Shown here one piece after another: positions 45,614 to 64,000 of a DNA stretch of 64,000 nt; the stretch's first letter is position 1, and every line of letters starts with the position of its first letter. The position numbers were made by a program, and so were the translations under genes. The stretch comes from Desulfuromonadales bacterium (lineage in GTDB: Bacteria > Desulfobacterota > Desulfuromonadia > Desulfuromonadales > UBA2197), in contig JACUTW010000002.1 of assembly GCA_014859605.1 (NCBI GenBank), positions 17,711 to 81,710 on the forward strand. The letters run 5' to 3'. The notes beneath the pieces are model-generated. The model saw nothing but the letters and a program-made list of their open reading frames with translations. It searched no databases and had not been told where the DNA came from.

Positions 45614-46264
45614 TTAGCGACTTTTTGTGACCCCTTGACGGGGACATAAAGCGAAGATCGGGCAGGTCGAGCAATCCGGGGTCGGGGCTTTACAGAAGGC
45701 CCGACCATGAGCGATGAGAAGGTGGCTGGTGGTGATCCAGTAGCGGCGCGGCAGCAACTCCGCAAGCTCGGTCTCGATGCGGTCAGGATCTCTGGCGGTC
45801 GTCCAGCCGAAGCGCTGCGCCAGGCGGCTGACGTGGGTATCGACGACCATCGCCGGAATTTGGAAGGCGGTGCCGAGGATGACGTTGGCGGTCTTGCGTC
45901 CGACGCCGGGGAGGGAGATCAACTCGCGAAGGGTGGCTGGGACCTTGCCGTGGTGGTGCTGCATCAGCCCTTGCGCACAGCCGATGAGGTGGCGGGCCTT
46001 GGCATGGTAAAAGCCGGTGGAACGGATCAATTCTTCGACCTCGCTGAGCTCCGCCTGACTGAGGTTGGCGGTATCGGGGTAGCGGGTAAAGAGGCTGGGG
46101 GTGACGAGATTGACGCGCCGATCGGTACACTGGGCGGAAAGGATGGTGGCAATGAGGAGCTCAAAGGGGGAGCGATGCGCCAGAGAACACTCGGCGGCCG
46201 GATAAACTTCTGCCAGGCGGTCAAGGAGGGTGGTCGGAGCCCGGGTTAAAGCGGGGGATTTCAC
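45614..46264 (-). CDS. nth: endonuclease III
   Basis: HhH-GPD (LPGVGRKTANVIL) and 4Fe-4S loop CKAPTPDCSTCPIFALC (C-x6-C-x2-C-x5-C). GTG at 46264 lies 1 nt after the hypE stop. The longer table ORF (to 46633) overlaps hypE and is rejected. Confidence 0.85.
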   Translation of the reverse strand: MKSPALTRAPTTLLDRLAEVYPAAECSLAHRSPFELLIATILSAQCTDRRVNLVTPSLFTRYPDTANLSQAELSEVEELIRSTGFYHAKARHLIGCAQGLMQHHHGKVPATLRELISLPGVGRKTANVILGTAFQIPAMVVDTHVSRLAQRFGWTTARDPDRIETELAELLPRRYWITTSHLLIAHGRAFCKAPTPDCSTCPIFALCPRQGVTKSR

Positions 46265-46265
46265 C

Positions 46266-47282
46266 TTAGCAGATCCGCGGCAGCTGTTCGCCGGCGAGCA
46301 TTTCGACGCCGCGGCGTCCGCCGATGGCGGTACGCATGAAGACTTTTCCCGGCGCCGTGGCAGCGACCACACCGATCGCCGCCGCCTGGATTCCTTCGGG
46401 ATGCCGGCGCATGATCGCCAGGGCAGCTTCGGCGCATTCCGGGGCAACGATGGCGAGGAGTTTCCCTTCGTTGGCGACAAAGAGGGGGTCGAGGCCGAGA
46501 ATGGCGCAGGCGCCGGCGACAGCAGCATCGACGGGGAGAACGGCTTCGTCAAGGGTGATGTCAATCTGCGATTGCAGGGCGATCTCTTTGAGGGTGGTGG
46601 CGATGCCGCCGCGGGTCGGATCGCGCAAAACATGAAGTCCGCTCCCGATGGTCTGGATCAATTCGGCAACAATATGGTTGAGGGCGGCACTGTCACTGCG
46701 GATTTCGGAGGCGAGGTCGAGCCCTTCGCGACTGGCCAAAACCGCCATGCCGTGATCGCCGATGCTGCCGTTGATCAGGACAACATCACCGGGTTGGGCG
46801 TTGTTGCCGCGAATGTCGTAGTCATGGTCGATGACGCCGATCCCGGCGGTATTGATAAAGAGTTTGTCCCCTTTGCCGCGCGGCACGACCTTGGTGTCGC
46901 CGGTGACGATCTTGACTCCGGCCTGATCGGCGGCGCGGCGCATCTCAACGAGAATCCGCCGCAGATCGTTGACGGGCAGCCCTTCTTCGATGATCAGGCC
47001 GACGCTCAGCCACTGCGGCCGGGCGCCGACCATGGCGAGGTCGTTGACCGTGCCGTTCACCGCCAGATCGCCGATGCAGCCGCCGGGAAAGAAGAGGGGG
47101 TCAACAACGTAGCTGTCGGTGGTGAAGGCGAGGCGTCCCTTCACCGGCGGCAGGATGGCAGCGTCGTTCTGGTCCTGACCCGCCACCCCGGAGAGGGTCG
47201 GGATGATGACTTCGTCGAGGAGCTGGTGGCTGAGTTTGCCGCCACTGCCGTGGCCGAGGAGGATGACATCTGTTTTTAGCAA
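46266..47282 (-). CDS. hypE: hydrogenase maturation carbamoyl dehydratase HypE
   Basis: ILLGHGSGG N-terminus, AIR-synthase-like fold, C-terminal PRIC motif. TTG at 47282 is preceded by GGAG (7-nt spacer); the table start is 47312. Confidence 0.9.
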   Translation of the reverse strand: MLKTDVILLGHGSGGKLSHQLLDEVIIPTLSGVAGQDQNDAAILPPVKGRLAFTTDSYVVDPLFFPGGCIGDLAVNGTVNDLAMVGARPQWLSVGLIIEEGLPVNDLRRILVEMRRAADQAGVKIVTGDTKVVPRGKGDKLFINTAGIGVIDHDYDIRGNNAQPGDVVLINGSIGDHGMAVLASREGLDLASEIRSDSAALNHIVAELIQTIGSGLHVLRDPTRGGIATTLKEIALQSQIDITLDEAVLPVDAAVAGACAILGLDPLFVANEGKLLAIVAPECAEAALAIMRRHPEGIQAAAIGVVAATAPGKVFMRTAIGGRRGVEMLAGEQLPRIC

Positions 47283-47446
47283 GAGGGAACTCCATAGTCG
47301 AGAGAGAATCAAACTGCAAAAGGGCGTTCCACACGGATTTGACGGATGAAACGGATAAAAGCAGATAAATCCAGACAGCAGCTTTTGGAGCTGTTTGAAA
47401 ATTCGTCAAATCAGATTTCATCCCTGTGCGGCCATGCTTTTACACG

Positions 47447-48544
47447 TCAATCGTGATCGCCGTATTTGTAGGCGGCGGCGCAGGTCCCTTCGCTGGAGAC
47501 CATGCAGGCGCCGACCGGATCCTGCGGCGTGCAGCGCCGGGCAAAGAGGGGGCACTCCGGCGGCGTGATCTTCCCTTTGAGGATGTCGCCGCAGCGGCAA
47601 CCGGCCGGTTCGATCGACTCCTCCACCGTCACTGGTAATTGCACTGCCGCATCGAAGGCCGCGAACTCGGGGCGGAAATCGAGGCCGGAGTCCGGGATGA
47701 TGCCGATCCCCCGCCAGCGCGCGTCGCCCGTGGTAAAGACCCGCTCAAGGAGTTGCTGCGCCTTGCGATTCCCTTTCTGGCGCACCAGGCGGCGGTATTC
47801 AATCTCGACCTCGGCTCTGCAGGCAAGGATCTGGCGGCCAAGCATTTTGATGCCGAGCAGGACATCGAGGGGTTCAAAACCGGTGACGACACAAGGGATG
47901 CGGCAGTTCGCGACCAGCGGCTGGTAGGCATCGGCGCCGATCACCGCGCTGACGTGGGCCGGGGCAAGAAAGCCGCTGACCTGTAGTTCGGGATCGGCCG
48001 CCAGAACCTGCATCGGTGTCGGCATGGTCTTGTGGGCGCCGAGGACAAAAAAGTTGTTCAAGCCGCGGCGCTGCGCTTCCAGGATCGATCCGGCAATGGT
48101 TGGAGCGGTGGTTTCAAAGCCGATGCCGAGAAAGACGATAGCGACCTGGGGATTCTTTTCGGCGAGAGCCACGGCATCGAGGGGGGAGTAGACGATGCGC
48201 ACATCGCCGCCCTGCGCCTTTTCCCGCAACAGGTTGCTGGATGAGCCGGGGACGCGCATCATGTCGCCAAAGGTGGCGATGATCGTTTGCGGGCGCCGGG
48301 CGAGGGCGATGGCATGATCGACATAATCGATCGGCGTAACACAGACCGGACAGCCGGGCCCGGAGATGAGGCGGATCTGCGGCGGCATCAGCGTGCGGAT
48401 GCCGTGCTGATGAATCGCCATGGTATGGGTGCCGCAAACCTCCATCAGTGTCATGATTCCCGCATAGTCGGCAACCAGTTCAGTAATTTCGGCAACGAGT
48501 TTGCCGGCAATGACCGGATCGCGATATTCGCTGCTGTGTTTCAT
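47447..48544 (-). CDS. hypD: hydrogenase maturation protein HypD
   Basis: 365 aa. EYRDP, CGTHTMAI, GPGCPVCVTP and C-terminal Cys cluster are typical of HypD. Confidence 0.9.
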   Translation of the reverse strand: MKHSSEYRDPVIAGKLVAEITELVADYAGIMTLMEVCGTHTMAIHQHGIRTLMPPQIRLISGPGCPVCVTPIDYVDHAIALARRPQTIIATFGDMMRVPGSSSNLLREKAQGGDVRIVYSPLDAVALAEKNPQVAIVFLGIGFETTAPTIAGSILEAQRRGLNNFFVLGAHKTMPTPMQVLAADPELQVSGFLAPAHVSAVIGADAYQPLVANCRIPCVVTGFEPLDVLLGIKMLGRQILACRAEVEIEYRRLVRQKGNRKAQQLLERVFTTGDARWRGIGIIPDSGLDFRPEFAAFDAAVQLPVTVEESIEPAGCRCGDILKGKITPPECPLFARRCTPQDPVGACMVSSEGTCAAAYKYGDHD

Positions 48545-48771
48545 TCCGGCAGGAGTCCCTGATCGAGAACTTCGCGCATCATCCGCAGCGTCTCTTCGGC
48601 TTCGTCCTCATCGATCTTCTCGATGGCAAAACCGGCATGAATGAGGACATAATCGTTGACTTCGATGCCATCGACCATCATCAGACTCGCCTCGCGGCGC
48701 ACCCCGTCAATTTCACAGATGGCGACCTCTCCCTCGATGGTCATAACCCGCATCGGTACAGCCAGACACAT
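48541..48771 (-). CDS. hypC: hydrogenase assembly chaperone HypC
   Basis: 76 aa starting MCLAVPMRV, the invariant N-terminal Cys of HypC/HupF. 4-nt overlap with hypD. Confidence 0.85.
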   Translation of the reverse strand: MCLAVPMRVMTIEGEVAICEIDGVRREASLMMVDGIEVNDYVLIHAGFAIEKIDEDEAEETLRMMREVLDQGLLPE

Positions 48772-48911
48772 AACTTATCTCCATCTCTTATTGGCACTGC
48801 CCGCGTGAAAACTTTGCGCGGACAGGCTGGATTGCGGTATAAAAAGAACTTTTGAAACACAAGAGAAGCGCATTATCGGCAGGTAGCAGCAGCAAGTCAA
48901 CAGGCGGATCG

Positions 48912-50780
48912 ATGATGAGCCCAAAACAGCAATTTTCGCCGCAAGACTATCCGACCCGCCCCGGTGTCTATCTGATGAAGGGGGCTGACGGCGTCGTCCT
49001 TTACGTCGGCAAGGCGCGGAATCTGCGCGCCCGCCTGCGCAGCTATCTGCGCCCGGAGCAGGACAGCCGCCCGCAGATCCGCTTCCTGATGGAACGGACC
49101 AAGAGCATCGAGACGATCGTCACCGATACCGAGAAGGAAGCACTGATCCTCGAAAATACCCTGATCAAGGCGCACCGCCCCCGCTACAATATCGATCTGC
49201 GTGATGACAAAACCTATGTTTCGTTACGGATTGATCTGCGCGAGCCTTATCCCGGTCTGCGCGTCGTTCGTCAGGTCACGGCTGACGGCGCCCTTTACTT
49301 TGGCCCCTTCTCCTCCTCGACGGCGGTCAAGGAGACCCTTAAGCAGCTTTATCGCATCTTCCCGCTGCGGCGCCTCTCGGCCGACTATTGTGCGCGACGG
49401 CAGCGTCCCTGCCTCTACTTTCAGATCGGTCAATGCAGCGCTCCCTGTCACGGCAAGATCAGCCCTGAGGATTACGCCGAGCTGGTGCGCGGCGCCATCG
49501 CCCTCCTTTCCGGTCGCGAAGACGACGTGCTCAAACTGTTGCAGGGGCAGATGCAGACCGCTGCCAAAGAGATGCGTTTTGAAGAGGCGGCGCTGCTGCG
49601 CGACCGGATCGAGGCGATCAAGGCGACGGTCGAGCGGCAGAAGGTTGTCGCCCATGGCGGCGGCGATTGTGATGTCTTCGGGCTCTGGGGGGACGGACGT
49701 GAATCGGCCATCGTCGTCCTGCTTATCCGCCGTGGCCGCCTCATCGACCGGCGCAGCTACCGCCTGCACAGCGCCATGGAGGAACCGGAGCTGCTGGGTC
49801 TTGCTCTGCAGCAATTTTATGATCACGGCAATACGCCGCCGCCCCGGATTCTTCTCCCGGTGCCTTGTGCCAGTAGTGAGGTCCTGAGTGAATGGCTGGG
49901 AGAAAGAAGCGGCGTCCGGGTCCGGTTGATCGTTCCGCAGCGCGGCGACAAACACGATCTGCTCGAACTGGCGCGGCAAAATGCCCGGGAACACTTTGGC
50001 GAAAAAGGACCAGAGGAGATCGCCGGCGCAATTTTGCAGGAGATCGCGACCCGGCTGGGGTTGCACAAGCTGCCGGCGCGCATGGAGTGTTTTGATATTT
50101 CGAATATGCAGGGGGGGAATATTGTCGGTTCGATGGTTGTCTTTATCGACGGCCTGCCGGCGAAAGAGGCCTACCGGCGCTATGAGCTCAAGACTCTGGC
50201 CGGGCACGCCGATGATTATGCCGCCCTCAACGAAGTCCTGGGCCGGCGCCTTGACCGGGCGCAGCAGGAAGGGGTCTTCCCCGATCTTATCCTCGTCGAC
50301 GGCGGCCGTGGGCAGTTGGGAATTTTAAGTGAGTTGATCGCCAGGAAGGGGTTGATGCCGCCGATTGAGATTGCTTCCATTGCCAAGGCGCGGCGGGAAA
50401 AGGTCGCCGGGAAGGCCACCCTGCGCAGCCAGGAACGCTTCTTCCGCCCCGGCAGCCCAGCTCCAATCCTCTTTCCTCCCGGCTCGGCGGCTTTGCGTAT
50501 GCTTCAGCGATTACGCGACGAGGCACATCGCTTTGCCATTACGTATCACCGGCAAAAGCGCAAGGCGAGGTTGCTGGGCTCGCAGCTGGAGCAGATTGCC
50601 GGTATCGGACCGAAGACCCGTCTTGAGCTGCTGCGCTATTTTGGCAGCTTGCGCCAGTTGCGCGCCGCGACCATAGAAGAACTTGCGGCTGCGCCGGGAA
50701 TCGGCAGTAAAACAGCCCAACGTATTTATGAGGGACTACGTCAGCCCGGGTGCAACGACTTGGGCGACACCAATCCGTGA
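48912..50780 (+). CDS. uvrC: excinuclease ABC subunit C
   Basis: GIY-YIG (PGVYLMKGADGVVLYVGKARNLRARL), UVR domain, endonuclease V-like and C-terminal (HhH)2. Start preferred at ATG 48912. Confidence 0.9.
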   Translation: MMSPKQQFSPQDYPTRPGVYLMKGADGVVLYVGKARNLRARLRSYLRPEQDSRPQIRFLMERTKSIETIVTDTEKEALILENTLIKAHRPRYNIDLRDDKTYVSLRIDLREPYPGLRVVRQVTADGALYFGPFSSSTAVKETLKQLYRIFPLRRLSADYCARRQRPCLYFQIGQCSAPCHGKISPEDYAELVRGAIALLSGREDDVLKLLQGQMQTAAKEMRFEEAALLRDRIEAIKATVERQKVVAHGGGDCDVFGLWGDGRESAIVVLLIRRGRLIDRRSYRLHSAMEEPELLGLALQQFYDHGNTPPPRILLPVPCASSEVLSEWLGERSGVRVRLIVPQRGDKHDLLELARQNAREHFGEKGPEEIAGAILQEIATRLGLHKLPARMECFDISNMQGGNIVGSMVVFIDGLPAKEAYRRYELKTLAGHADDYAALNEVLGRRLDRAQQEGVFPDLILVDGGRGQLGILSELIARKGLMPPIEIASIAKARREKVAGKATLRSQERFFRPGSPAPILFPPGSAALRMLQRLRDEAHRFAITYHRQKRKARLLGSQLEQIAGIGPKTRLELLRYFGSLRQLRAATIEELAAAPGIGSKTAQRIYEGLRQPGCNDLGDTNP

Positions 50781-51008
50781 TATTCCACGATTTCAGTCTT
50801 TGGTTGTTGTTGCTGACGATCTTTATGGTAATTTTTTCATGGCCCTTAGTGGCGCATGGAGTCTCTGGAGGTTTGTAATAAATCTTTCCTGGTCAATTAA
50901 TGGAGGAGGACGGGGAATGGGCACCCTTTTTGCTTTTATCGGAATCGCATCAATAAAATATCATCGATTAGGAAATATAAGATTTAAAGCCACTTAGGAG
51001 GCGCCGAT

Positions 51009-54000
51009 ATGAAACGGCTCGGACAAAAAATTTGTGTAGCAGTAGCGTTATCGCTGGCGTTTGTAGCCATATGGCACGATTCGGCGCAGGCCGCAATGCC
51101 GGTTATCAGCTCCCTTGGGCAAATCAAGAATAGTTCGGTTGTTACTCCGACCCGCATCGATGTTGATGCGGCCGGAACGATCTATCTTTGTGACGGTACT
51201 TTGAACGGGGTGGCGCGCTTTGATAAATATGGCAAAGCGCTTCAGGTTCTCAGGGGTGGATACAAGGTCAGGTCGAATGGTGTCGCTGTTACACCGGACG
51301 GAAGCCGTGTTTTTGTTTCTGTTTCCGAGCCGAACAGCGCTGTTGCCACTGCAGTTGCAGTCATTAACGGGTCTACTGGCGAGTTAATCGGCTATCTCGG
51401 TGGTGGTTTTGGCGAGTTTAAAGGGATTAGAGAGATTGACCTGGATGCGGCCGGAAATATCTATGTCGGTAATTACGATAAGGGCAAGACTGTCGCTACG
51501 GTCGCAGCCAATTTTGACACGACCGCTCAGATTGATGTTTATGATGGTGTCACCTACGCAAAGACACACTCCTTTGGTGCTCCCGCTTCGAATCTTGTCA
51601 ACGGCTATTATTTGCCTCTGGCCGGAGAGTTCGGTGAAATTGGCGGTTTGACGGTCGATGTTGTTAATCAGGAAGTCATCATCGCTGAGGGTTGGAATAA
51701 CAACGGGATTACCCGCGCGCAGGTTTTTTCTCTTGATGGAACATTGAAACGTCTCTTGACCGAGGCGGAAGTCTCCGGAACCCAGATTAACTGTAAGCCG
51801 GTGGGATTGACGGTCGATCCCACCGGTCGAGTTTACATGCTCAGTATTTTAACCAGTACCATTCATGCCTTTACCATTAATCCGGTGGTTCAGTATCTGG
51901 GGAAATTCACCAGTGGGACTCCTGACCCGGCTTATGATCCTATCACCGGGAAGGTTTATCCCTGGACGGTCGGGATGATTCCCTCCCCGGCTTTTGATGT
52001 GGTCTATGATTCTTTGACCAATCGTATCTTTGTCGTGACAGACGGTAACGGTATCCAGATCTTCTCGGTAGATGGTTCGACTAATCCGGTAAAGACCAAT
52101 AATGCTCCTGAAGCACCGGCTCTGATCAGCCCTGTTCAGGACGTTGTCGTCGCCACACTAACCCCGACTCTGCAGTGGTCGGCGGCCGTAGATGCAGATA
52201 ATGATGTTCTTTCCTACAATGTTCAGATCATGGCGTTAGATGGCACGATCGTCAGCAGTAACTCTAATATTGCAGCGACCAGTCATCCGGTTGCCGCCGG
52301 TAAATTGGTTGAAAATAGCTGGTACACCTGGCAGGTTCAGGCCGCTGATGCCGAGTTGACTTCGCCCTACAGTGCTGTCGGGAGTTTTTGGGTCAATGCG
52401 GTTGAGGAAGCGCCGACCGCAGCGCTCCTCCTTTCACCCGACAACGCTACCAGGGCCGACAAGGATACAATTTTCAGTTGGCAGGCGGCAACGGATGCCG
52501 ACCCCTTGAGCTCAATCAGTTACCGTTTGGAAATTGCCCGAAATGCGGATTTCACCGCACCAATCATCAGGATTGAACAGAGCGGGCTTAGCAGTGCCCC
52601 TCTGTCGACTTTGCCCGGTTATGACGACCTGCAATCCGGGACCACCTACGACTGGCGAGTTGTTGCAGTTGACAATAGTGCTAGCCGCTTGATCTCAACC
52701 AGTGCTGTCCGCTCCTTCTTTAGTAACAGCGCCCCCGAAATTCCGGTGATGCTCAGTCCGCTTCAGGGTGACGAAGTTGCAACCTTGACGCCGGATTTGC
52801 AGTGGGCGGCCCCTGTCGATGCCGATGGCGACACCCTGCGTTACAATGTCAGGATCGTTGATGCTGCCGGCGTGGTCGTGAGTACCAACAACTCTGTTGC
52901 GACGACAAACTTTATGGTTACGGGCGGAGTTCTCCTTGAAAACAATCAATATGGCTGGCAGGTCCAGGCCGATGATGGCAAGCTCACCTCTGACTTTAGC
53001 GAAATTAAATACTTCTGGGTCAATGCCGTTGAGGAGGCGCCGACCGCGCCAGCCCTTGACGCTCCGGCAGCTGTAATCAATGCTGACAAGGACACGACTT
53101 TTCATTGGCAGGCAGCAAGCGATCCTGATCCCCTTGCCTTCATCAGTTACCGTCTGGAAATTGCCCGGGATAGCGATTTCGCGACGCCAGTGATTGTTGT
53201 TGAGCAAGCGGAACTCTTCAGTGCCGTCCTCTCAGAAATGGCCGGTTATGACGACTTACAGGCGAATACAACGTACCAATGGCGTGTTCTTGCTATTGAT
53301 AATACCGGCTTGAGTACAGCGAGCGAAGTTCGCGCATTGACTTATGTCAGTACGATTCTGACGATTGACGCCACCTTCCCCGGCGCCAAAGTCTATCTCG
53401 GCGGCAATAGCGCTTATAGTGGTCGCTATGTTGGCGAAGTGCCGGTGGCGCTACGCGACATCGATCCCGGAACGATCGAAGTTGTTGTCGAACTTGCCGG
53501 TTTTGAACCGTGGATCAAAAGTGTTGTTGTGAACCAGTGGCAGGGTGTTGTTGTGACTGCCGACCTCGTCGTCGCCATTCTCCCCGGCGAGTTCAAGAAG
53601 GCCTCCCTGTTCGCCGGTGGTGTAAAGATTCAGGGCGGGCCTGAGGCTGCCCCGGTGCTTGTCGATTTCGATAGTGACGGAATCGATGATCTTCTCGTTG
53701 CCGATGGCAGCGGAAAACTCCTTCTCTACAAAGGGCTGGCCGGAGATGTCTGGTCGCTGGCGGCCGCTGTTCAGCTCCCGGGGGTGACTCTCCCTGTCGG
53801 TGCTGTTCCTTTTGTTGCTGATTGGAATAATGACAATCGGAAAGACCTCCTGGTCGGAGCCGCGGATGGTTCGGTCTCTCTTGCTCTCAATGTCGGGACA
53901 CAGGAATCGCCGGTCTTTGCCGCACTCATCTCGTTGCAGGCTGACAATGCTCCCTTGAGTGTCGGCAGCAATGCCGCCCCGCTCCTTTTTGATCTTGACG

Positions 54001-54710
54001 CTGACGGTGCTAAAGATCTTCTGGTCGGGAGTGGCGATGGTACACTCTACAGCTTCCGCAATATCGGTAGTGATGCGACCCCGGTCTTTGCGGCCCGCGA
54101 AGTGCTGATTGCCGCCGCTGCCGGCGCCTCGAATGCTTCAGCGCTTGTGTCGGATTGGGATGCGGATGGCAGTAAAGAGATCCTCCTCGCGGCAAATCAG
54201 GAAATTGCTTTGTATGAGCGTCAAGATGACGCTTATGTTAAAGGGGATCCTCTCCTCGTTCATCAGTCTCTCTATAATACTCGCTTGCGTTCATACGAAA
54301 TGCAGAGCAGCAGCTTCGGCGAAAAAATCCGTATGATTGCAGCTAATCCGGATGGCAAGTTTGGCAAAGACTTGCTGATAGGCAATGCCGCCGGAGAAAT
54401 TTTGTTGGCAAATTCGACGATGAATAAATCGCGGGCGATCTCTCCTCATTTTGATCTGGCATTAATGGCAACGGTCGCTGAAATCGAAGCACTGATTCAG
54501 GAGAATAGCTTGAACACGCCACTGCTCACCTTGACCTTGAGTCAGTTAAAGACGAATATTCAGTCACAGGCTGTCAATAAGTTGAAGAGCTACGATAAAG
54601 CCAAACAAAATGTGCTCTCTATGCAGTCCGCACTGCAAGAAAACACGGAAATTTCCGCAGTCATCAGTAAACTGCAGACCCAACTGAACAGCAAGATTCC
54701 TTTGAAATAA
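51009..54710 (+). CDS. secreted 1233-aa multidomain protein: NHL-like beta-propeller + 2x(approx. 209 aa) FN3/Ig-like tandem + PEGA + five FG-GAP/VCBS repeats + helical tail
   Basis: TAGGAGG RBS. Signal peptide ...WHDSAQA. NHL-like blades (IDVDAAGTIYLCD, IDLDAAGNIYVGN, LTVDPTGRVYMLS). PEGA-like ILTIDATFPGAKVYLGG...VVVELAGFEPW. FG-GAP repeats (VDFDSDGIDDLLVADGSGKLLLY, FDLDADGAKDLLVGSGDGTLYSF, etc.). Confidence 0.8.
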   Translation: MKRLGQKICVAVALSLAFVAIWHDSAQAAMPVISSLGQIKNSSVVTPTRIDVDAAGTIYLCDGTLNGVARFDKYGKALQVLRGGYKVRSNGVAVTPDGSRVFVSVSEPNSAVATAVAVINGSTGELIGYLGGGFGEFKGIREIDLDAAGNIYVGNYDKGKTVATVAANFDTTAQIDVYDGVTYAKTHSFGAPASNLVNGYYLPLAGEFGEIGGLTVDVVNQEVIIAEGWNNNGITRAQVFSLDGTLKRLLTEAEVSGTQINCKPVGLTVDPTGRVYMLSILTSTIHAFTINPVVQYLGKFTSGTPDPAYDPITGKVYPWTVGMIPSPAFDVVYDSLTNRIFVVTDGNGIQIFSVDGSTNPVKTNNAPEAPALISPVQDVVVATLTPTLQWSAAVDADNDVLSYNVQIMALDGTIVSSNSNIAATSHPVAAGKLVENSWYTWQVQAADAELTSPYSAVGSFWVNAVEEAPTAALLLSPDNATRADKDTIFSWQAATDADPLSSISYRLEIARNADFTAPIIRIEQSGLSSAPLSTLPGYDDLQSGTTYDWRVVAVDNSASRLISTSAVRSFFSNSAPEIPVMLSPLQGDEVATLTPDLQWAAPVDADGDTLRYNVRIVDAAGVVVSTNNSVATTNFMVTGGVLLENNQYGWQVQADDGKLTSDFSEIKYFWVNAVEEAPTAPALDAPAAVINADKDTTFHWQAASDPDPLAFISYRLEIARDSDFATPVIVVEQAELFSAVLSEMAGYDDLQANTTYQWRVLAIDNTGLSTASEVRALTYVSTILTIDATFPGAKVYLGGNSAYSGRYVGEVPVALRDIDPGTIEVVVELAGFEPWIKSVVVNQWQGVVVTADLVVAILPGEFKKASLFAGGVKIQGGPEAAPVLVDFDSDGIDDLLVADGSGKLLLYKGLAGDVWSLAAAVQLPGVTLPVGAVPFVADWNNDNRKDLLVGAADGSVSLALNVGTQESPVFAALISLQADNAPLSVGSNAAPLLFDLDADGAKDLLVGSGDGTLYSFRNIGSDATPVFAAREVLIAAAAGASNASALVSDWDADGSKEILLAANQEIALYERQDDAYVKGDPLLVHQSLYNTRLRSYEMQSSSFGEKIRMIAANPDGKFGKDLLIGNAAGEILLANSTMNKSRAISPHFDLALMATVAEIEALIQENSLNTPLLTLTLSQLKTNIQSQAVNKLKSYDKAKQNVLSMQSALQENTEISAVISKLQTQLNSKIPLK
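52098..53352 (+). repeat. in-frame tandem duplication (period about 627 nt) within the 1233-aa protein gene
   Basis: NNAPEAPALISPVQDVVVATLTPTLQWSAAVDADNDVLSYNVQI... is repeated as SNSAPEIPVMLSPLQGDEVATLTPDLQWAAPVDADGDTLRYNVRI... Both units end with a second module (FWVNAVEEAPTA...ISYRLEIAR..DF). Confidence 0.85.
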
Positions 54711-54745
54711 TACAGGGACTATCGATGCAAAACTGGAGAAAAAAG

Positions 54746-55522
54746 ATGCTTAGAAAATCCGTACTGGTTGTTGCTCTGCTTCTGGTCGCAACAAATCTAT
54801 GGGCGGCGAAAACCATGGATGTCTCAGGGACACGACATAATCTGTCGTCAACCTCGGTCAATATCCCCGGCGGCAACTATTATATGGCGACGAATGAAGA
54901 TGAAGTCTGCATCTTTTGCCATACGCCGCATGGTGGCACCATGAACACCCCCTTGTGGAACCGTGCCGTCCCGACCGGAACCGGTTTTACTCACTACACC
55001 AGTGCCACCCTTTCCGGCTATATGACGGGAGCAGGGATGTCGACCCGACCCGTCAATGCTGAGTCGCTCCTTTGTATGTCGTGTCACGATGGCTCTACGG
55101 CGATGAACAGTATCATCAATAACAGTAATCGCACTGCCGCTGCCCCGGATAATACGAGTAATATCCAACCCATGTTCTTTGCCATCGGCGGTGCGATCGG
55201 TGATGCTCCAGATCCAAGTGGGTGGGGCTTTTTAGGGGACACCAAAAACCTTTCCGACGATCATCCGATCTCCTTCAGTTATTCTTCATCTTATAACCAC
55301 ACGGATAACACCGGTGAGTTTCGTGCGCCGGCCGATGCCAAGACCTCGGGGATTCGCTTTTTTGGTGCGGATATTGCCACCGGTAATTTTGTCGAATGTT
55401 CGTCGTGCCATGATCCGCATGTGAATTACGAAGCCGCAAATGGTGGCGATACTGCTTATACTCCCTTTCTAGTAACACCGAACACCGGCAGTGCTCTTTG
55501 TCTCGCTTGTCACATTAAATAG
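54746..55522 (+). CDS. tetrahaem c-type cytochrome (two paired-CXXCH-like halves)
   Basis: GGAG lies 7 nt before ATG 54746. Signal MLRKSVLVVALLLVATNLWA. Haem motifs CIFCHTPH, CMSCHDG, CSSCHDPH, CLACH (last five residues before IK-stop). Confidence 0.85.
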   Translation: MLRKSVLVVALLLVATNLWAAKTMDVSGTRHNLSSTSVNIPGGNYYMATNEDEVCIFCHTPHGGTMNTPLWNRAVPTGTGFTHYTSATLSGYMTGAGMSTRPVNAESLLCMSCHDGSTAMNSIINNSNRTAAAPDNTSNIQPMFFAIGGAIGDAPDPSGWGFLGDTKNLSDDHPISFSYSSSYNHTDNTGEFRAPADAKTSGIRFFGADIATGNFVECSSCHDPHVNYEAANGGDTAYTPFLVTPNTGSALCLACHIK

Positions 55523-55533
55523 AAAGCTTGCAA

Positions 55534-55572
55534 GTGTTTAAAAAGCCCCAAAAGTCGGGGCTTTTTAAACAC
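55534..55572. terminator. strong bidirectional-type terminator hairpin
   Basis: Perfect 16-bp stem GTGTTTAAAAAGCCCC / GGGGCTTTTTAAACAC with a 7-nt loop (55550-55556). Confidence 0.75.
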
Positions 55573-55642
55573 ACATATCATTAGAAAAATTGAATTGAAA
55601 TATTTTCCTAAAAAGTTTTTGCTCTGACAGGAGTACGCAATT

Positions 55643-58600
55643 ATGCGCTTTCATGAAAATTTACTTGGTATAGTCCTGGCCATAAGTTTGTGTTTACCCC
55701 TGTCTGCCTTTGCAGCCAAAGTACATGATCAGGGATGTAATAACTGTCATCGGAGTGGCGCTAATCCCCGCACCTTAGCGAATCTGTGTACTCCCTGTCA
55801 TCTCTCCTTTGGATTAACAAAAGCGAGTGCCGCCTTGGGGAGTCATCCCTCTCCTCCAGAACCAATCTCCGGCGCAGAGACGGTCCATTTCTGGGGAGGA
55901 TCAACGACAACACAGCTAGAGGCGGGAGCAACCAATCCGCCGACGGCTTTTTATACCAGTCGCTATTCCATATCAAAAAACCGCGTGACCTGTACAATAT
56001 GCCACGATCCGCATGCTGATAAGGTCGTCAAGCCCACACTGCTTCGTGCCACAGCGGACGGAGACCTGATTTGCCAGCAATGTCACAGCAGCAGATTCGT
56101 TTCGAATGTCCCGGATACCAATGCCACCCTGACCCATCCCCTTGTCAGTGATTATGAAGCCTTTGCAGCCGCTAATCCGACTAAATACAAAACGCTGAGC
56201 AATTCAGCCAGCGGCGCTGTTCGTCTGGTTGCGGGTGATGTATCCTGTACCTCCTGTCATTCTCCGCACTTTGCAGACTCCTCCTCTGCGACAGAAGACG
56301 GTTTGTTAAATATTGCTGGACTGACTTCCGGAGACGGCTATCTCCTCCGTTCTGACGGTCCGCTCCGTACCGGCGCTAACCGCGACGGTGCTACCGGCAC
56401 GGGTCAGCTTCGCTCCAACCTCTGTCAGGCCTGTCATACTTACAAGATGCACGGAAAAGGTGGCAACCAGCAGATGATCGGTTGTCTCGACTGTCACGGT
56501 GGACATTCCTACAATAACGGAGCGATCAGCGCCTACGTTCTTGCCGGTAAGTCGCCGGATGCCGTACCGGTACGCGCCCTTCGTGCTCCGGCCGGGACAG
56601 CTCAGGTCACTTATGCGGCCTTTCCTGACGGCGGCAGTGTTAGAACCAAGTGGTCTGACAATACCAAGGGAACGGCTAACGGGTTCTGCGAAAAGTGTCA
56701 TGGTGATGTTCAGAATGATGGCCCTGGCGGACTTGGCAATATTGAACTTGAGCATTTGGAGGGCGGTTTAGCCGAATGTACCACTTGCCACAAACATGGT
56801 GAAACCACCTTCAGTTTTGCCAATGACGCAAACGCCGCCACCTGCGGCCAGTGTCATGGTTTCCCCCCTTATAAAAATATCAGCGGCTTCCGTAGCGAAA
56901 TCGGTGATGCGAATGACGGCGGCTGGGCGGATAACAATGTTGATTTGCCCCGCTATGGTTATACCGATAGCAGTCATTTCCTGGATGAATCAAAAGCCGG
57001 GCATAAAACCCATGCCGGCGCCAAACTGGCGGTGAATCCGGGTGAATGGTACTTTGTCGGCACCTCCGGCATCGACAACTGCAAACCTTGTCACGGTAAT
57101 CAGTCTGGCTCCCTCGCCGGCGGCCATCGTGTTCCGCTGTCAACCGATGCCAATACTTTCCGTGATGTTCATTTTGCTTCCACAGCAACTGTTGGTGGTT
57201 TGGTTCCCTCCTATAATACTGTTGCTCACAAGTGTGACAACACCTACTGTCACTCCAATGGTGGAAAACGCACTGGAGATGGACCGGTCCGCAGTTATGC
57301 TGCCCACACCACTCCGGCTTGGGTCGGCACCGGTGCTAACTACACCGCTGGCGGTTATGGTTCAATCTTCCTGCAACCGGTTGCAACCCGTTGCGCCGAC
57401 TGCCACGGGTACAGCGCAGCGACGATGACAGCACAGGGGAATTCGCCGGTACATAACGCCCATCTCGGCGCCGGTGCCACAGGGATCACTTACGAATGCG
57501 ACGTTTGTCATGTCGCAACGGCCGATAGCACAAGAGCATCAAAGCTGAAACTGGATGCGACCGATGGTCAAAAAGGTGGTAAACACGTCAACGGACAAAT
57601 CGAAGTCGGTTACAAAACCAGTGGTAACGCTTTGTTCGCGTCACTGGCAACTAATGCTGTCGGACCGAATTATGATCCTGTCACCGGTACCTGTTCTGTC
57701 TATTGTCACGATCCGGCTGATATCGGATTGACAGCAGATTGGGATGATACCACCGACATGCAGTGCGATACCTGTCACGGTGGTATCGCGACGGATACCT
57801 CTGCCAATGGCGGAATCGGGATCATCACCTCCGGATCTCATACCAGACACATCACCACCGCTAACGGTGGCCCCGGGCTTTCCTGTGAAGTCTGTCATGG
57901 CGCCAATACCACTGCCGGCACCCATAGCGGCCATCTCGACGGCATGAATAACATGGTGCCGCCGGTGGATGGTGTCAATTTCGCGGATGTCTGTGATGAA
58001 TGTCACGGCTATGACGCACAAGCCGGCGAAGTCAAACCAATCTGGGGAAATCCGGCGACAACCGACTGCGCCACCTGCCATTCCGGAACGCATAAGTCCT
58101 CGGGATGGGTCGGGGCACCGAATGCTCCACTCTTTGCGCTCGATCGCACGACTGGACATGGTCGTCCCGCCGCCAGCGGCAACTATCCGGTCACCGGCAA
58201 TGCGCCGGGTAACTCGGCCTGTCTCGATTGCCATGTCGCCACCGCCAGCGGTCACTTCAGCGGCGGGCTGGGTGATGCGCTGATGCTGCGCACCGACCTC
58301 GGCTTCCCGGCAACCTACAGCGGCAATGAAAATGCTTTCTGTGCCAACTGCCACGGCACCGCGCCGGCGCATCCGACCAAAACAGCCAGTGCCGCAACCC
58401 GCAATATCGGCACCCATGCGGCAAAGCGTTGCATCGGCTGTCATGACCTGCACGGCACAGCGAACATTCATATGGTCACGGAACTAAGGGCCACCCAGAA
58501 TGTCAAGGATAACTCCGCCACCGGTAAATATAGCGGCAACGTCTCCTTCCTGCAGATAACCGGTCTTAATTCCTACGACGAGGATGACGGGGAGGTTGGC

Positions 58601-61600
58601 GGCGCTGGTGAAGTCAACGCTGATGATATCTGCGCCACTTGTCATACCGTGGCTGGCGGCGTCCTGCACAACAACAGCAATAATTCGGCCGTTGATCACT
58701 TCCAGGGGAAAGATTGTATCACCTGTCACGGCAATCATCAGATCAGCGGCAATGCTTTCAAGGTCAGGCAGTGCGACGATTGTCACGGTGGTATCAGTAC
58801 TGATACTTCTGCAGACGGCGGAGTCGGGGTCATCACCACCGGTTCCCATACTCGTCACATTACCACCGCCAACGGCGGTCCGGGCCTGTCCTGCGACATC
58901 TGTCACGGCGCAAATGCAACAATCGGCACCCACCCCGGCCACATCGACGGCACAAATAACATGGTACCGACCAACTATCCGGCCAGCTTTGCCGATATCT
59001 GCGATGAGTGCCATGGCTATGACAACGAACCCGGCGAGGTCAAACCGATCTGGGGCTCCCCGGCAACCACCGATTGTGCCACCTGTCACGCCGGATCTCT
59101 GATCAGTGATGGCTGGCCCGGTGCAGCCAATCCCCCGACCTTTACCTTTGCCCGCACCAGCGGCCACGGACGTCTCCCGGCCAGCGGCACCTACCCGGTC
59201 TCCGGCAATGCCGCCGGTAACTCCAACTGTCTTGACTGCCATGTAGCGACGGGCAGTGGCCACTTTAGCGGCGGACTTGGCGATGCATTGATGCTGCGCA
59301 CCGACGTCGGCTTCCCGGCAACCTACACCGGCAACGAAAATATCTTCTGCGCCGCTTGCCATAGTGCGGCCCCGACCCATCCGACTAAATCGGCAACTGC
59401 CGCGACCCGCGGTATCACCACCCATGCGGGAAAAACCTGCATTGCCTGTCACGACCTGCATGGCACCGGCAATATCCAGATGGTGATTGCCTCGCAGACA
59501 GAGCAAAATACCAAAGACAATTCATCAAACGGTCAATATACCGGCAGTGTTTCGTTCCTGGCGATTACCGGCGCCAACTCCTATGACGAAGACGATGGTG
59601 CAGCCGGCGGTGCCGGAGAAATCAACGGCGACGATATCTGCGCCACCTGCCATCTCCTGGCAGAAGGGGTTACCCACAATAACAGCAATAATTCAACTGG
59701 TAACCATTACCAGGGTGAGGATTGCTTTACCTGTCATTCCGGCCACAAAAATGCGACCAACTCCTTCATCGCAGGTGCCGGTACGGCTTGTAACGATTGT
59801 CATGGCAACCCGCCGAATACTGGTGCGCACGGTACCGGCAGTAACAAACACACCCGGGTTTCGTCGAATGACCGAACCCTCGAAGATCTGACCGATTGTG
59901 CTTACTGTCACACCGGCGCGAACGATTACACCTACGATCTTGGCGCTGACCAAGGCGCCGTTGGTGCCCGCGCCAACCACGGCAGCGGCAATCGCGTCGC
60001 GGTCCTTGCCACGTCCATCGGTTACAGCCAGAGCGGTAACCTTTGGGGCTGCGCCAACGTTTGTCACACCTCGTCGGCAGCCGATAGTTTCTGGTTCGAT
60101 AAGAGTAGCGGCAGTGACCCGGCGACCTGGATCAAAGATACCAACGGCATTTCCTGTAATGCCTGCCACTTCTATGCGCCGACCGTTTCTGCGGCCAGTG
60201 TTCCGAACAATCTTTCGGATGTTCACGACGAGCACTTTGCCGCCGGCAAAGGGTGCGCCGAATGCCACCCGATGACCGGTGACTACAACAGCGGCGTCGG
60301 GCATGCAGGACCGTTGACCCATATCGACAGTTTCGATTTCGGTAGCGGTAAAGATGACAATGACGGCCTGGCCCTCGTCGATATGGCGCAGGCAACTCAG
60401 GATGAAGCCGGCTACGACAAAGGCGGCGGCGTTCGCGATGTCGTCCGTGCCGGGATGACCTATACCGATGCCAATACCTGCTCGGGCGGTATCGGTCTCG
60501 GTTGCCATGCCACCGGAGTTCCGGATTGGGATATTCCTATCCCCAACAACAATGCCGGTTGCCTGGAATGTCACACCGACACCAACAACGGCGCGGTTGG
60601 CAACCCTGTCTCCGGTATTCATGACAACAGTCCCAACGGCCCGACAGTCACCGGCGTCGCTCACGACGGCAGCTTCGATAACGGCAGCGGCGGAATTGCC
60701 GATTGCGTGACCTGCCACTCCCTTACCCCGACAGTTGTCGCTGCCAATCACATGAATGGCACCATCAACACCGGCACGGCGATCACCGTTCTCCCCATCG
60801 CCGGCTATAACCAGGCAACCAGCAGCTGTACAACTGCCTGCCACAGCGCTGGTACGGCCTGGGCTTACAAGTGGTCGTTGAGCGCATACGCTACCAACGG
60901 GACCGAGTGTGCCAACTGTCACGGTGACTATGCTACCGGTTGGGTCAGTGGCGTGGCGCCACATACCGAGAACCCGACCCGCGGCAGCAAGCACAACGCG
61001 ACCGGCAATTTGACCTATCCCTGCGCCGAATGTCATGGCATTGGATCTCCCGGCTACAAATGGACGACCATGTGGGATCCGACCGGCGCCACCAGCCATC
61101 ATGGCGACGACAAGATCACCATGAGCAATTCGGCAGTACATACTTTTGCCATCGACACCGCCCCGAACCCGGATCGTGCCGGCTGTACAACTACGAGTTG
61201 CCACGGCAACGACAGCTTGCACAACTTCCGCGTTACGACGACATCCCTGCCGACGGCAACAGTTACCGGCATCGAGGCGGCGATTCTCTGTTCAAGCTGT
61301 CACGGCGGTTATGTCGGCACCAATGCCAACGGCTACTGGCCGGACGGTGCCAACGCTGTCGATAATGGTAGCGAAGACAACAGTGGTGCCCACTTAAAGC
61401 ATATGGTCTATCTCGCGAAGTCGATCTACGATGAGGATCTTGCCGGGCTGCTGACCGATAATGGCAAGGGAGACGCTGATGCAAAACAGAAGGAACTCTG
61501 TTCCTACTGTCATAATGCGCCTGGTTCCGACGGTGACCATGGCCCGGTTGCCAGCCTGCCGGCCGAAGTCAATAGCATGTACAAAGGTTGGCTGCCGAAG

Positions 61601-64000
61601 ACCGCTGACAACGGCGTCTGGAGCGCCGCCAGCAAGACCTGTGCGACGGTCGATTGTCACTTTAACAAAACGACTCCGACAACCAACGACTGGTACGCCC
61701 CGCTTAACAACGGCAACTGCGCTATGTGCCATGTCGATGTGACGGTTGAAACCGCCCACACCAAACATACCTCGGCGGCGACCGCGACCACCTTCGGGCG
61801 CGCCTCCCTCTGCTCCGATTGCCATGAAGCCGCGACCAACTGGGGGACCAACACCGGTCCGGCCACAGGTCACATTGACGGTGTTTATACGGTCGCCGGC
61901 AGCAAAATGACCTCCTATGTCGGCTTTACTTATCCGGCGGTGAAGGGCACCTGCGGCACCAACGCTTGTCACAACAACGGCATTGGCGGCGCACCGATTA
62001 TCGATCCGGTCTGGGGAACGACGCAGGCAAACTGTACAATCTGTCACGCAGGCACCCCGGCGACCGGCACGCACGTCAAGCACATGAGCAACACGGCATG
62101 GGTGTCGGGTGGCTGCAGCGACTGTCACACCGACTCGACAGCTTCTGTAATATCGGCATCTACTCACATGGATGGCGTCCGTAACGCCGGCGGTAGCAAG
62201 AATGTTGTCAATAACGCCAACGGTTCCTGCACCAATACCTGCCATCTCTCTGCCGAGGCCGGGAACTGGACCGGCAACAGCAGCAATATTACTTGTACGG
62301 ACTGCCACAGCGGCAGCGGCGCGTCGGCTTATATCGGCGGCAACAAGACCAGCGTTGGCGGTCCCAACTACATGCCGCAGTACAACATGCACCTGACGGT
62401 TCCGACGGTCTCTGGCAAGGTCCATACGGCTGCCGGTCTTGCCACCGCCTGTACCACCTGCCACAGCAATCTCGCTGACAAGACCACCCACATGAACGGG
62501 GTCTGGACAGCAGATGATGCCGACAACACCAATGACCAGCACCGTGGTCTCTTTGCCGGCTTCACTGACGGGACGGTTCCGACCTGTAACACCGCCTGTC
62601 ACAGTGCCGGTGCCGCCTGGGCCTACAAGTGGTCCGCTACTGCCGGGGCGACGAACGGCACTCAATGCGATAACTGCCACGGTCGCTTCTCAACCGGCTT
62701 TAACGCCGGAGTTATGCACCAGCTCATGGACAGCCGTGGCAATAACGCGCATACCAACAGTGGCAACCTTGCTTATCCCTGTACCGACTGCCACGCGATC
62801 GGTGCCAGCAGCGGTAATTATCCCTTCGCCAATATCAGCAACGACTGGAAAGCGACCGACGCCGGTGCAACCACTCCACACGGCGATGGTTTCATCACCC
62901 TGAACAGCAACGGAACCACCTGGGCCCGCCTTGGCGGTCGCTCCGGTTGCTCTGCCTGCCACGCTGGCGCGACCGGTACGGCGAATAATTATGATTATCC
63001 GACAACTGCCTGGACGTCTCAAACGGTTCTCGGCGATCCGCCTGACGTGAGCGGCAGTTGCACCGCCTGCCATGGCGGCGCGGAATACTGGCCAGACGGC
63101 ACAGTCGCTCCGGATCGTACCGGAAAACATTCCGCCCATGTCCACGCCATTGCGGTTCAACTCGGCGGCGACACGGCGGGGAATCGTAACGCAACCTGTT
63201 CCTATTGCCACCCCAATCCAGGTGAATCCGGGCACAATGACGGCGGCTCGGCCGAAGTCGGACTGTTCAAGAATATCCTCACCGGCGCCTTTACCGATCC
63301 TGACGGGGTCCTCAATACTGCCGACTCAACCTGCAGTCTGGTCGATTGCCACTTTAATAATGCCGTCACTCCGCATTGGTATACCGACATCTATCCGCCG
63401 GCACAGGTGACCTTGACCGCCACCACCGGTGTTGCTGCCAAGCCGCGTTCGATCAATGTCAGTTGGACCTCGCCGGGTGATGACGCTAACGTCGCCAACA
63501 CCACGGTGCACCGTTACGATATGCGTTACGGTACCAGCAGCGCGATTGCCAGCGATTTTGGTCGTACGGACAATTATGCTGGCGGGTTACCTTTGGCTTA
63601 TGCCCAGGGGACGCTCCAGGATGTCACTATTGATAACCTGACGCCGGGAACGACCTACTACTTCAGCCTGCGCAGTCAGGATGTTGCCGGTAACTGGTCA
63701 ACGCCATCCGCTGTCGTCAGCGCCGTGGCGAGCGGTGATACGGTTGTACCGTACTTCGGTGGCGTCAACCGTGCGGCCAAGGCCGATGAATCACAAACCA
63801 TCAATGTCGAATGGTCGCCGGCTGAAGACCACACCATGCCGATCACCTACAAGATCTGGGTCAAGCCGGTTTCGTCCGGTGCCCTTGATATGGATATTGA
63901 TGCACCGCTGTTGACCGGCGTCAAAGGCTACAAGTACCAATTGACCTCTGCCAACGGCGTCGTCAATGACATGATTTATCAGGTTGGTGTGCGTGCTTGT
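55643..64000 (+). CDS. giant multihaem c-type cytochrome, 3' end beyond the window (at least 2,786 codons); NOT in the supplied ORF table
   Basis: Frame +2 is open from ATG 55643 to 64000, with an in-frame TGA at 55625-27 and AGGAG at 55629-33. Frame checked at 56762, 57764, 60002 and 63002. Signal MRFHENLLGIVLAISLCLPLSAFA. Hand count is 52 CXXCH + 11 CX3/4/7CH. FN3-like modules from about 63395. No other +2-frame ORF appears in the table for this span. Confidence 0.9.
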   Translation, partial: MRFHENLLGIVLAISLCLPLSAFAAKVHDQGCNNCHRSGANPRTLANLCTPCHLSFGLTKASAALGSHPSPPEPISGAETVHFWGGSTTTQLEAGATNPPTAFYTSRYSISKNRVTCTICHDPHADKVVKPTLLRATADGDLICQQCHSSRFVSNVPDTNATLTHPLVSDYEAFAAANPTKYKTLSNSASGAVRLVAGDVSCTSCHSPHFADSSSATEDGLLNIAGLTSGDGYLLRSDGPLRTGANRDGATGTGQLRSNLCQACHTYKMHGKGGNQQMIGCLDCHGGHSYNNGAISAYVLAGKSPDAVPVRALRAPAGTAQVTYAAFPDGGSVRTKWSDNTKGTANGFCEKCHGDVQNDGPGGLGNIELEHLEGGLAECTTCHKHGETTFSFANDANAATCGQCHGFPPYKNISGFRSEIGDANDGGWADNNVDLPRYGYTDSSHFLDESKAGHKTHAGAKLAVNPGEWYFVGTSGIDNCKPCHGNQSGSLAGGHRVPLSTDANTFRDVHFASTATVGGLVPSYNTVAHKCDNTYCHSNGGKRTGDGPVRSYAAHTTPAWVGTGANYTAGGYGSIFLQPVATRCADCHGYSAATMTAQGNSPVHNAHLGAGATGITYECDVCHVATADSTRASKLKLDATDGQKGGKHVNGQIEVGYKTSGNALFASLATNAVGPNYDPVTGTCSVYCHDPADIGLTADWDDTTDMQCDTCHGGIATDTSANGGIGIITSGSHTRHITTANGGPGLSCEVCHGANTTAGTHSGHLDGMNNMVPPVDGVNFADVCDECHGYDAQAGEVKPIWGNPATTDCATCHSGTHKSSGWVGAPNAPLFALDRTTGHGRPAASGNYPVTGNAPGNSACLDCHVATASGHFSGGLGDALMLRTDLGFPATYSGNENAFCANCHGTAPAHPTKTASAATRNIGTHAAKRCIGCHDLHGTANIHMVTELRATQNVKDNSATGKYSGNVSFLQITGLNSYDEDDGEVGGAGEVNADDICATCHTVAGGVLHNNSNNSAVDHFQGKDCITCHGNHQISGNAFKVRQCDDCHGGISTDTSADGGVGVITTGSHTRHITTANGGPGLSCDICHGANATIGTHPGHIDGTNNMVPTNYPASFADICDECHGYDNEPGEVKPIWGSPATTDCATCHAGSLISDGWPGAANPPTFTFARTSGHGRLPASGTYPVSGNAAGNSNCLDCHVATGSGHFSGGLGDALMLRTDVGFPATYTGNENIFCAACHSAAPTHPTKSATAATRGITTHAGKTCIACHDLHGTGNIQMVIASQTEQNTKDNSSNGQYTGSVSFLAITGANSYDEDDGAAGGAGEINGDDICATCHLLAEGVTHNNSNNSTGNHYQGEDCFTCHSGHKNATNSFIAGAGTACNDCHGNPPNTGAHGTGSNKHTRVSSNDRTLEDLTDCAYCHTGANDYTYDLGADQGAVGARANHGSGNRVAVLATSIGYSQSGNLWGCANVCHTSSAADSFWFDKSSGSDPATWIKDTNGISCNACHFYAPTVSAASVPNNLSDVHDEHFAAGKGCAECHPMTGDYNSGVGHAGPLTHIDSFDFGSGKDDNDGLALVDMAQATQDEAGYDKGGGVRDVVRAGMTYTDANTCSGGIGLGCHATGVPDWDIPIPNNNAGCLECHTDTNNGAVGNPVSGIHDNSPNGPTVTGVAHDGSFDNGSGGIADCVTCHSLTPTVVAANHMNGTINTGTAITVLPIAGYNQATSSCTTACHSAGTAWAYKWSLSAYATNGTECANCHGDYATGWVSGVAPHTENPTRGSKHNATGNLTYPCAECHGIGSPGYKWTTMWDPTGATSHHGDDKITMSNSAVHTFAIDTAPNPDRAGCTTTSCHGNDSLHNFRVTTTSLPTATVTGIEAAILCSSCHGGYVGTNANGYWPDGANAVDNGSEDNSGAHLKHMVYLAKSIYDEDLAGLLTDNGKGDADAKQKELCSYCHNAPGSDGDHGPVASLPAEVNSMYKGWLPKTADNGVWSAASKTCATVDCHFNKTTPTTNDWYAPLNNGNCAMCHVDVTVETAHTKHTSAATATTFGRASLCSDCHEAATNWGTNTGPATGHIDGVYTVAGSKMTSYVGFTYPAVKGTCGTNACHNNGIGGAPIIDPVWGTTQANCTICHAGTPATGTHVKHMSNTAWVSGGCSDCHTDSTASVISASTHMDGVRNAGGSKNVVNNANGSCTNTCHLSAEAGNWTGNSSNITCTDCHSGSGASAYIGGNKTSVGGPNYMPQYNMHLTVPTVSGKVHTAAGLATACTTCHSNLADKTTHMNGVWTADDADNTNDQHRGLFAGFTDGTVPTCNTACHSAGAAWAYKWSATAGATNGTQCDNCHGRFSTGFNAGVMHQLMDSRGNNAHTNSGNLAYPCTDCHAIGASSGNYPFANISNDWKATDAGATTPHGDGFITLNSNGTTWARLGGRSGCSACHAGATGTANNYDYPTTAWTSQTVLGDPPDVSGSCTACHGGAEYWPDGTVAPDRTGKHSAHVHAIAVQLGGDTAGNRNATCSYCHPNPGESGHNDGGSAEVGLFKNILTGAFTDPDGVLNTADSTCSLVDCHFNNAVTPHWYTDIYPPAQVTLTATTGVAAKPRSINVSWTSPGDDANVANTTVHRYDMRYGTSSAIASDFGRTDNYAGGLPLAYAQGTLQDVTIDNLTPGTTYYFSLRSQDVAGNWSTPSAVVSAVASGDTVVPYFGGVNRAAKADESQTINVEWSPAEDHTMPITYKIWVKPVSSGALDMDIDAPLLTGVKGYKYQLTSANGVVNDMIYQVGVRAC
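57764..59788 (+). repeat. in-frame tandem duplication of a 336/339-codon, nine-CXXCH unit inside the giant cytochrome
   Basis: Unit 1 is 57764-58771 (QCDTCHGGIATDTSANGG...). Unit 2 is 58772-59788 (QCDDCHGGISTDTSADGG...). About three-quarters of residues are identical by eye. The same similarity shows in the antisense shadow ORFs 57641..58471 and 58484..59506. Confidence 0.85.

Follow-up and report, generated by a model that had tools for sequence, protein, structure and literature searches.

A tandem duplication of a nine-haem module in a giant multihaem cytochrome gene of a Desulfuromonadales bacterium

Passages of two accounts of long single-chain cytochromes discuss both an electron conduit and electron storage as roles for such proteins (PMC11492766, PMC10138318). 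In the same passages, GSU1996 and GSU0592 of Geobacter sulfurreducens appear as dodecahaem "nanowire" cytochromes composed of four tandem c7-type trihaem domains (PMC10138318; PMC11492766). Passages of a "cytochromome" survey report giant cytochromes of the Desulfuromonadia, with a tail of up to 87 motifs and predicted wire-like extracellular clusters, and already discuss module repetition as a route to these giants (PMC11492766), and multihaem cytochromes have been described as evolving by "grafting and pruning" of modules (PMC9250108). Here we analysed a window of 64,000 nucleotides (nt) from a Desulfuromonadales bacterium (assembly GCA_014859605.1, contig JACUTW010000002.1, positions 17,711 to 81,710), in which a giant multihaem c-type cytochrome gene contains two adjacent copies of a 336-residue module with nine CXXCH haem motifs.

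Duplication of haem modules within a protein is an accepted mechanism, from which the case in the window differs by the size of the unit, the uncharacterised family and the clear one-copy relatives. As in GSU1996, a haem chain on one polypeptide appears to have grown by head-to-tail module repeats, and parts of the unit match the Pfam family Cytochrome_C7. However, the window unit has 336 residues and nine haems, compared with about 80 residues and three haems in GSU1996, and it occurs twice in a protein that exceeds 2785 residues and also carries a fibronectin type III (fn3) domain. The repeated unit is thus not the c7-like trihaem of about 80 residues expected of a GSU1996-type c7 polymer. 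GSU1996 is periplasmic; the window protein may be periplasmic or lie on the cell surface. The giants in the survey passages come from the same kind of organism and likewise have extreme haem counts and no characterised homologues, whereas these passages describe neither the nine-haem module nor the contrast between one and two copies (PMC11492766). Grafting and pruning resembles the present case in that gain of a whole module alters the chain length, but the window module appears to have been copied from its own neighbour, neither taken from another protein nor lost. Matches to the Pfam model PF22113 recall the outer-surface decahaem cytochromes of the MtrC/OmcA type; in contrast to these, the window protein is without a canonical lipobox and has a very different size and architecture, and it scores far below the cut-off of the DmsE/MtrA model.

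Two adjacent units in one reading frame

Frame 2 of the plus strand is open from 55628 to the window end (2791 codons), with a methionine at 55643. The gene is missing from the ORF list of the window solely because it continues past the end. The gene, the two units and their boundaries lie as follows.

55643..64000, plus strand: giant multihaem c-type cytochrome gene, 5' part; at least 2785 codons, continuing past the window end (from the open frame and motif counts)
57761..58768, plus strand: unit 1; 336 residues, protein CXXCH motifs 14-22; positions 1-336 of the unit hidden Markov model (HMM), 655 bits
58769..59776, plus strand: unit 2; 336 residues, protein CXXCH motifs 23-31; unit HMM positions 1-335, 645 bits
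58760..58777, plus strand: junction of unit 1 and unit 2, ...FKVR/QCDD...
59777..59806, plus strand: unique continuation after unit 2, AGTACNDCHG; matches the sequence after the single unit in the relatives L001 and P0002; no third unit

Units 1 and 2 are adjacent, in frame and on the same strand, each of 1008 nt or 336 residues, and they align without gaps. Local self-alignment of the protein gave a single ungapped block of 333 residues (712-1044 against 1048-1380 of the open reading frame, ORF) at a constant offset of 336 residues, and comparison of the protein in chunks gave 24 matches at this offset. A DNA repeat search gave three blocks with 71-76% identity, every one spaced by 1008 nt. 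The off-diagonal at about 1.0 kb, for which a self-comparison had been proposed in the initial annotation of the window, is therefore present at both the DNA and the protein level. The units are identical at 714 of 1008 nt and 238 of 336 residues, 71% at both levels. Their alignment scored 1378 with BLOSUM62, compared with 63 ± 12 for 300 shuffles (z about 111), and none of the other 336-residue stretches tested from the giant protein scored above 155. Because the score lies far above those of the shuffles and of the other stretches, the similarity is not generic to haem-rich sequence. Each unit contains nine CXXCH motifs, at unit positions 2, 42, 78, 103, 154, 194, 224, 291 and 319 in both. 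These results demonstrate an internal tandem domain duplication, with adjacent in-frame copies far above chance and with unduplicated relatives.

The initial annotation had proposed a tandem duplication of a nine-haem module in a giant cytochrome, and this was borne out by the constant 1008-nt offset, the 71% identity and the nine CXXCH motifs of each copy; all six of the peptide examples that it quoted are present in the unit alignment. Its tandem units of about 1 kb stand, whereas a second period of 1017 nt and a size of 337 residues have to be replaced by 1008 nt and 336 residues for both units. The figure of 1017 nt arose because the period was measured to the CXXCH at 59789 (ACNDCH), which is part of the unique downstream sequence. 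The start of the first unit, placed at 57764, is at 57761, one codon earlier. Tandem Repeats Finder reported no repeat, but a unit of 1008 nt exceeds its period limit of 500, so this is no evidence against the repeat. Self-BLAST of the whole protein returned the identity match only, and the chunked comparison was used instead.

At the junction, the final CXXCH of unit 1 and the opening CXXCH of unit 2 are separated by 14 residues (motifs at 1030 and 1049). In the native link, the last motif of the module is followed by the next one downstream after 17 residues in the window and 16 in L001. The first motif of unit 2, QCDDCHGG, resembles the displaced downstream motif, ACNDCHG. Because the junction is close to the native 16-17 residues and the two motifs are alike, the arrangement would fit a continuous chain nine haems longer. 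A 10-nt exact run, ACGATTGTCA, is common to the first CXXCH of unit 2 (58772-58792) and the first motif after the array (59789-59809); the motif reads CDDCH in unit 2 and CNDCH after the array, and its third position is T or S in the relatives and in unit 1. The shared run could be due to chance, to a small conversion tract or to a remnant of the original crossover. The four bases GCAG, which are common to the present-day boundaries, were rejected as a breakpoint signature, the run being too short and the event too old. Two antisense ORFs of 276 and 340 residues lie on the minus strand within the units (57641-58471 and 58484-59506), and in all likelihood they are shadow ORFs that reflect the high G+C content of the gene.

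Within the window, the giant protein (2785 residues present) has 52 CXXCH and 10 CX3-4CH motifs; since its C-terminus lies outside the window, its size and CXXCH count are lower bounds, at least 2785 residues and at least 52 CXXCH. Haem attachment in c-type cytochromes occurs outside the cytoplasm, and an export signal is therefore expected. Inspection of the translation points to one at the N-terminus.

55643..55714, plus strand: probable Sec signal peptide, MRFHENLLGIVLAISLCLPLSAFA/AK

This region begins with charged residues, followed by a hydrophobic core and A-x-A, and the N-terminus of the protein is also present in the relatives P0008 and P0014. The lipobox of the MtrC/OmcA lipoproteins was not found by inspection, the sole cysteine of the signal region being in a non-canonical I-S-L-C. 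In Pfam, the whole protein scored 171.9 bits with Cytochrome_C7 (PF14522; cut-off 24.8), 153.9 bits with MtrC/MtrF II-IV (PF22113; cut-off 30) and 102.6 bits with Cytochrom_c3_2 (PF14537; cut-off 25). The PF22113 matches fall into six stretches, the top-scoring of which is residues 76-231 of unit 2, and with PF14522 the single units scored 49.5 and 56.6 bits, each above the cut-off. The NCBIfam model TIGR01904 (CxxxxCH/CxxCH domain, Geobacter type; cut-off 27) gave 60 bits for the whole protein in four stretches, the best of which (residues 648-722) overlaps the start of unit 1, while the isolated units stayed under the cut-off with 16.1 and 19.8 bits. With the DmsE/MtrA decahaem model TIGR03508, the whole protein reached 63 bits and each unit 28.6 bits, below the cut-off of 192.2. 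By its motifs, its Pfam and NCBIfam matches and its probable export signal, the giant protein is a multihaem c-type cytochrome with predicted haem attachment. The full-length relative P0002 has 53 CXXCH, an fn3 domain and a long C-terminal extension; extrapolated from it, the full window protein would have about 62 CXXCH haems, compared with about 53 without the second module.

Single-copy relatives and age of the duplication

Relatives were sought in one genome per species, among 1.84 billion representative proteins (exhaustively, with a profile), in one metagenome scan and in one word-indexed protein search. The scan of species-representative genomes gave one locus only, L001, on a Desulfuromonadales metagenome-assembled genome. 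Its product is 57% identical to the window protein over 2318 aligned residues, and its only large internal gaps, of 105 and 231 residues, together make 336 residues, one unit's worth, corresponding to the unit 2 stretch. The profile search gave 107 representatives at E ≤0.001, most of them giants of 1.3-4.5 thousand residues with the module at about residues 630-1000. When the relatives were rescanned with the unit profile, two adjacent full-length strong matches were detected only in the window protein, and P0002 (3673 residues) and L001 had one each. In the metagenome scan, contig Ga0209725_1000049 (JGI) carried the adjacent paralogous genes L006 (7397-18844) and L004 (8003-19594), whose products of 3816 and 3864 residues have 53 CXXCH and one module each. 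The comparison of copy number among relatives that had been suggested at the outset thus gave one unit in each of four full-length proteins (L001, P0002, L004 and L006; full-length relatives span 3673-3864 residues). Against these one-copy relatives the added length is evident, and the haem chain would be lengthened with it, in line with what the initial annotation had considered plausible. The word-indexed search with unit 1 returned one fragment (P0001), the window's own protein being absent from that collection, and a 140-residue query across the junction had no matches in the same collection; no other two-copy relative was found in these searches. The L006/L004 pair shows that tandem duplication of an entire gene has also taken place in a relative.

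In a neighbour-joining tree of the modules, units 1 and 2 were sisters in 100% of 300 bootstraps, and the single-copy relatives formed their sister clade (80%). The two units are equidistant from the relatives, with 49-61% and 47-62% identity. The simplest reading of this pattern would be one duplication in the lineage of the window after its split from the known single-copy relatives.

Identity between the units was 79, 82 and 51% at codon positions 1, 2 and 3. The proportion of synonymous differences (pS) was 0.66, corresponding to a saturated synonymous divergence (dS) of about 1.6, and the proportion of nonsynonymous differences (pN) was 0.18; the resulting nonsynonymous-to-synonymous ratio (dN/dS) of about 0.13 is approximate only, since dS is saturated. 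All 18 cysteines, 21 histidines (nine in motifs and 12 others) and three methionines are conserved between the units, and the two units have the same G+C content at third codon positions (GC3), 0.64. Across 19 aligned family members, six histidines outside the motifs and M238 do not vary, and two further histidines are almost invariant; these conserved candidate ligands would roughly match the needs of nine six-coordinate haems. As judged from the sequences, the duplication took place long ago, and purifying selection has maintained each copy as working cytochrome sequence. Because all haem sites and candidate distal ligands are retained in addition to the purifying selection, both copies would be functional parts of the protein.

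In distant members of the family, the whole module is repeated at a spacing of 600-700 residues, or parts of it are repeated several times, which suggests that repeat expansion is a recurring habit of these giant cytochromes. The first third of the module (profile positions 1-113) occurs five times at a spacing of about 200-225 residues in P0044, P0057 and L007 (6338-11863), and P0062 carries four copies of profile positions 192-325, spaced by about 153 residues. P0028 (2121 residues) has three 100% identical repeats of 632 residues (1-632, 633-1264 and 1265-1896), each with a distant copy of the module; for a repeat of this type, copy number is truly unreliable in short-read assemblies.

Origin and retention of the second copy

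Our data make it very probable that the two units go back to an ancient, lineage-specific, in-frame and head-to-tail duplication of 1008 nt in the gene for a giant secreted multihaem cytochrome, and that both copies are functional. A 1008-nt segment would have been copied head-to-tail in frame after the split from the single-copy relatives, and the second module would contribute nine further haems, covalently bound and in series with the remaining chain. The extra module may thereby lengthen a single-polypeptide electron conduit, or enlarge an electron store, at the cell surface or in the periplasm. Several points weigh against this explanation. The term lineage-specific is based on four full-length proteins and one fragment, with few close relatives known, and the estimate of selection carries the saturation of dS described above. 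An AlphaFold2 model of the unit from the 19-sequence alignment had a mean predicted local distance difference test score (pLDDT) of 46 and a predicted template modelling score (pTM) of 0.37, and it was not used. Sequence searches of the PDB gave nothing usable: the profile matched only NrfB, at E = 0.12, and the whole protein matched no entry. In addition, the independent Logan contigs reach no further than 58071, 310 nt into unit 1, and stop short of the junction at 58769.

As for the reason why the second copy was kept, a diverged role, for example in a different redox range, in docking to a partner or a mineral, or as a branch point, would be suggested by the 98 of 336 residues that differ, mainly between the haem motifs, and the long persistence of the two copies is as compatible with sub- or neo-functionalisation as with haem dosage. 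However, the divergence is symmetric, all haem and ligand residues are retained, and no new site is marked in the sequence. We regard a diverged role as rather unlikely, and it overlaps the explanation by a functional haem-module duplication rather than excluding it.

A different history, in which the ancestor already had two copies, one of them was lost in the relatives and gene conversion made the units sisters, is improbable. Multi-copy ancestors are conceivable, as distant members carry module repeats at other spacings, and few relatives have been sampled. On the other hand, the units are grouped in every bootstrap with neither nearer to the relatives, and gene conversion must have ceased long ago, as dS between the copies is saturated. 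Since all four full-length relatives (two of them paralogues on one contig) are single-copy, and L001 and P0002 continue identically after the unit, loss would imply that the same precise deletion took place several times, or once in their common ancestor.

The window derives from the metagenome of a mud volcano near Kerch (SRR11917416), which was sequenced as Illumina 2x150 reads and assembled with metaSPAdes (PMC7565565). Two metagenome-assembled genomes of Desulfuromonadales were obtained from it, and one of them (probably Kmv15 or Kmv16 of PRJNA636628) is the most likely source of the window. Long repeats had been named in the initial annotation as places where short-read assemblies collapse or expand copy number. 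This concern does not apply to the present repeat. The copies differ at 29% of bases, their longest exact run is 21 nt and they have no k-mer of 25 nt or more in common, so that there is nothing to collapse or loop through, and they can be distinguished both by 150-nt reads and at the k values customary in assembly. Two Logan contigs from SRR11917416 are identical to the window at 40767-49205 and 49176-58071. The stop of the latter at 58071 is not due to the repeat, because its terminal 30-mer (58042-58071) is unique in the window; low coverage, strain variation and a k-mer shared with a paralogue elsewhere are possibilities. The units are joined exactly in frame and register, and GC3 is equal across both. 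In the tree, built from two protein-collection searches, one of species-representative genomes and one of a metagenome, the copies are each other's closest relatives, a pattern that a two-organism chimera would not be expected to give. That the second copy is a mis-assembly of short reads, or a join of two strains or species, is very improbable.

With the duplication of a functional module as the preferred explanation, the locus offers a clear example of how a giant multihaem cytochrome may grow, a nine-haem block having been copied and both copies long kept under selection. The one- and two-copy pair could serve as a natural test of the benefit of extra haems, whether in reach, current or charge storage. 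A broader proposal, possible but doubtful, is that the 336-residue module is a portable element from which the single-chain haem wires of a large family are built. The module family has 107 representative clusters among the 1.84 billion, with proteins of 1.3-4.5 thousand residues and 30-76 CXXCH. If this proposal were true, one- and two-copy orthologues would form a natural length series for distinguishing a conductive path from electron storage. The family is without a characterised or solved member, and the present case is of more interest as an entry point to it than in itself.

Neighbouring genes and further repeats

Two genes on the same strand precede the giant gene, and one further domain was located in its product.

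51009..54710, plus strand: upstream protein of 1233 residues; domains fn3, Ig-like, FG-GAP and PEGA; ends 14 nt before the next gene
54725..55522, plus strand: upstream cytochrome of 265 residues with four CXXCH; 120 nt 5' of the giant gene
63437..63712, plus strand: fn3 domain in the giant protein; Pfam fn3 32.1 bits (cut-off 25), residues 2599-2690

The genes for the 1233-residue protein, the 265-residue cytochrome and the giant protein probably form one operon. Neither upstream gene had a tblastn match in the flanking DNA of the orthologue loci L001, L004 and L006, and a search for contigs encoding a protein such as the 265-residue cytochrome returned no record.

Within the unit (57761-58768), the third with haems 1-3 aligned to that with haems 4-6 with an hhalign score of 48, compared with 27 ± 5.5 in shuffled controls, and the other two pairs of thirds were at the level of the shuffles. 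A composition of the nine-haem unit from three trihaem repeats was rejected, as only thirds 1 and 2 exceed the shuffles, and weakly; there is a hint, no more, that the module may have grown from a trihaem block.

Another internal duplication is present downstream of the units.

60668..61705, plus strand: older internal duplication, first copy; aligned to 62414-63391 over 309 residues with 41% identity, at an offset of about 586 residues
62414..63391, plus strand: older internal duplication, second copy; motif, for example, ...CHS..T.W.YKWS...GTECANCHG, repeated in L001 and P0002 (by eye)

The duplication at the 586-residue offset probably predates the 336-residue duplication, because L001 and P0002, when read by eye, repeat the same motifs.

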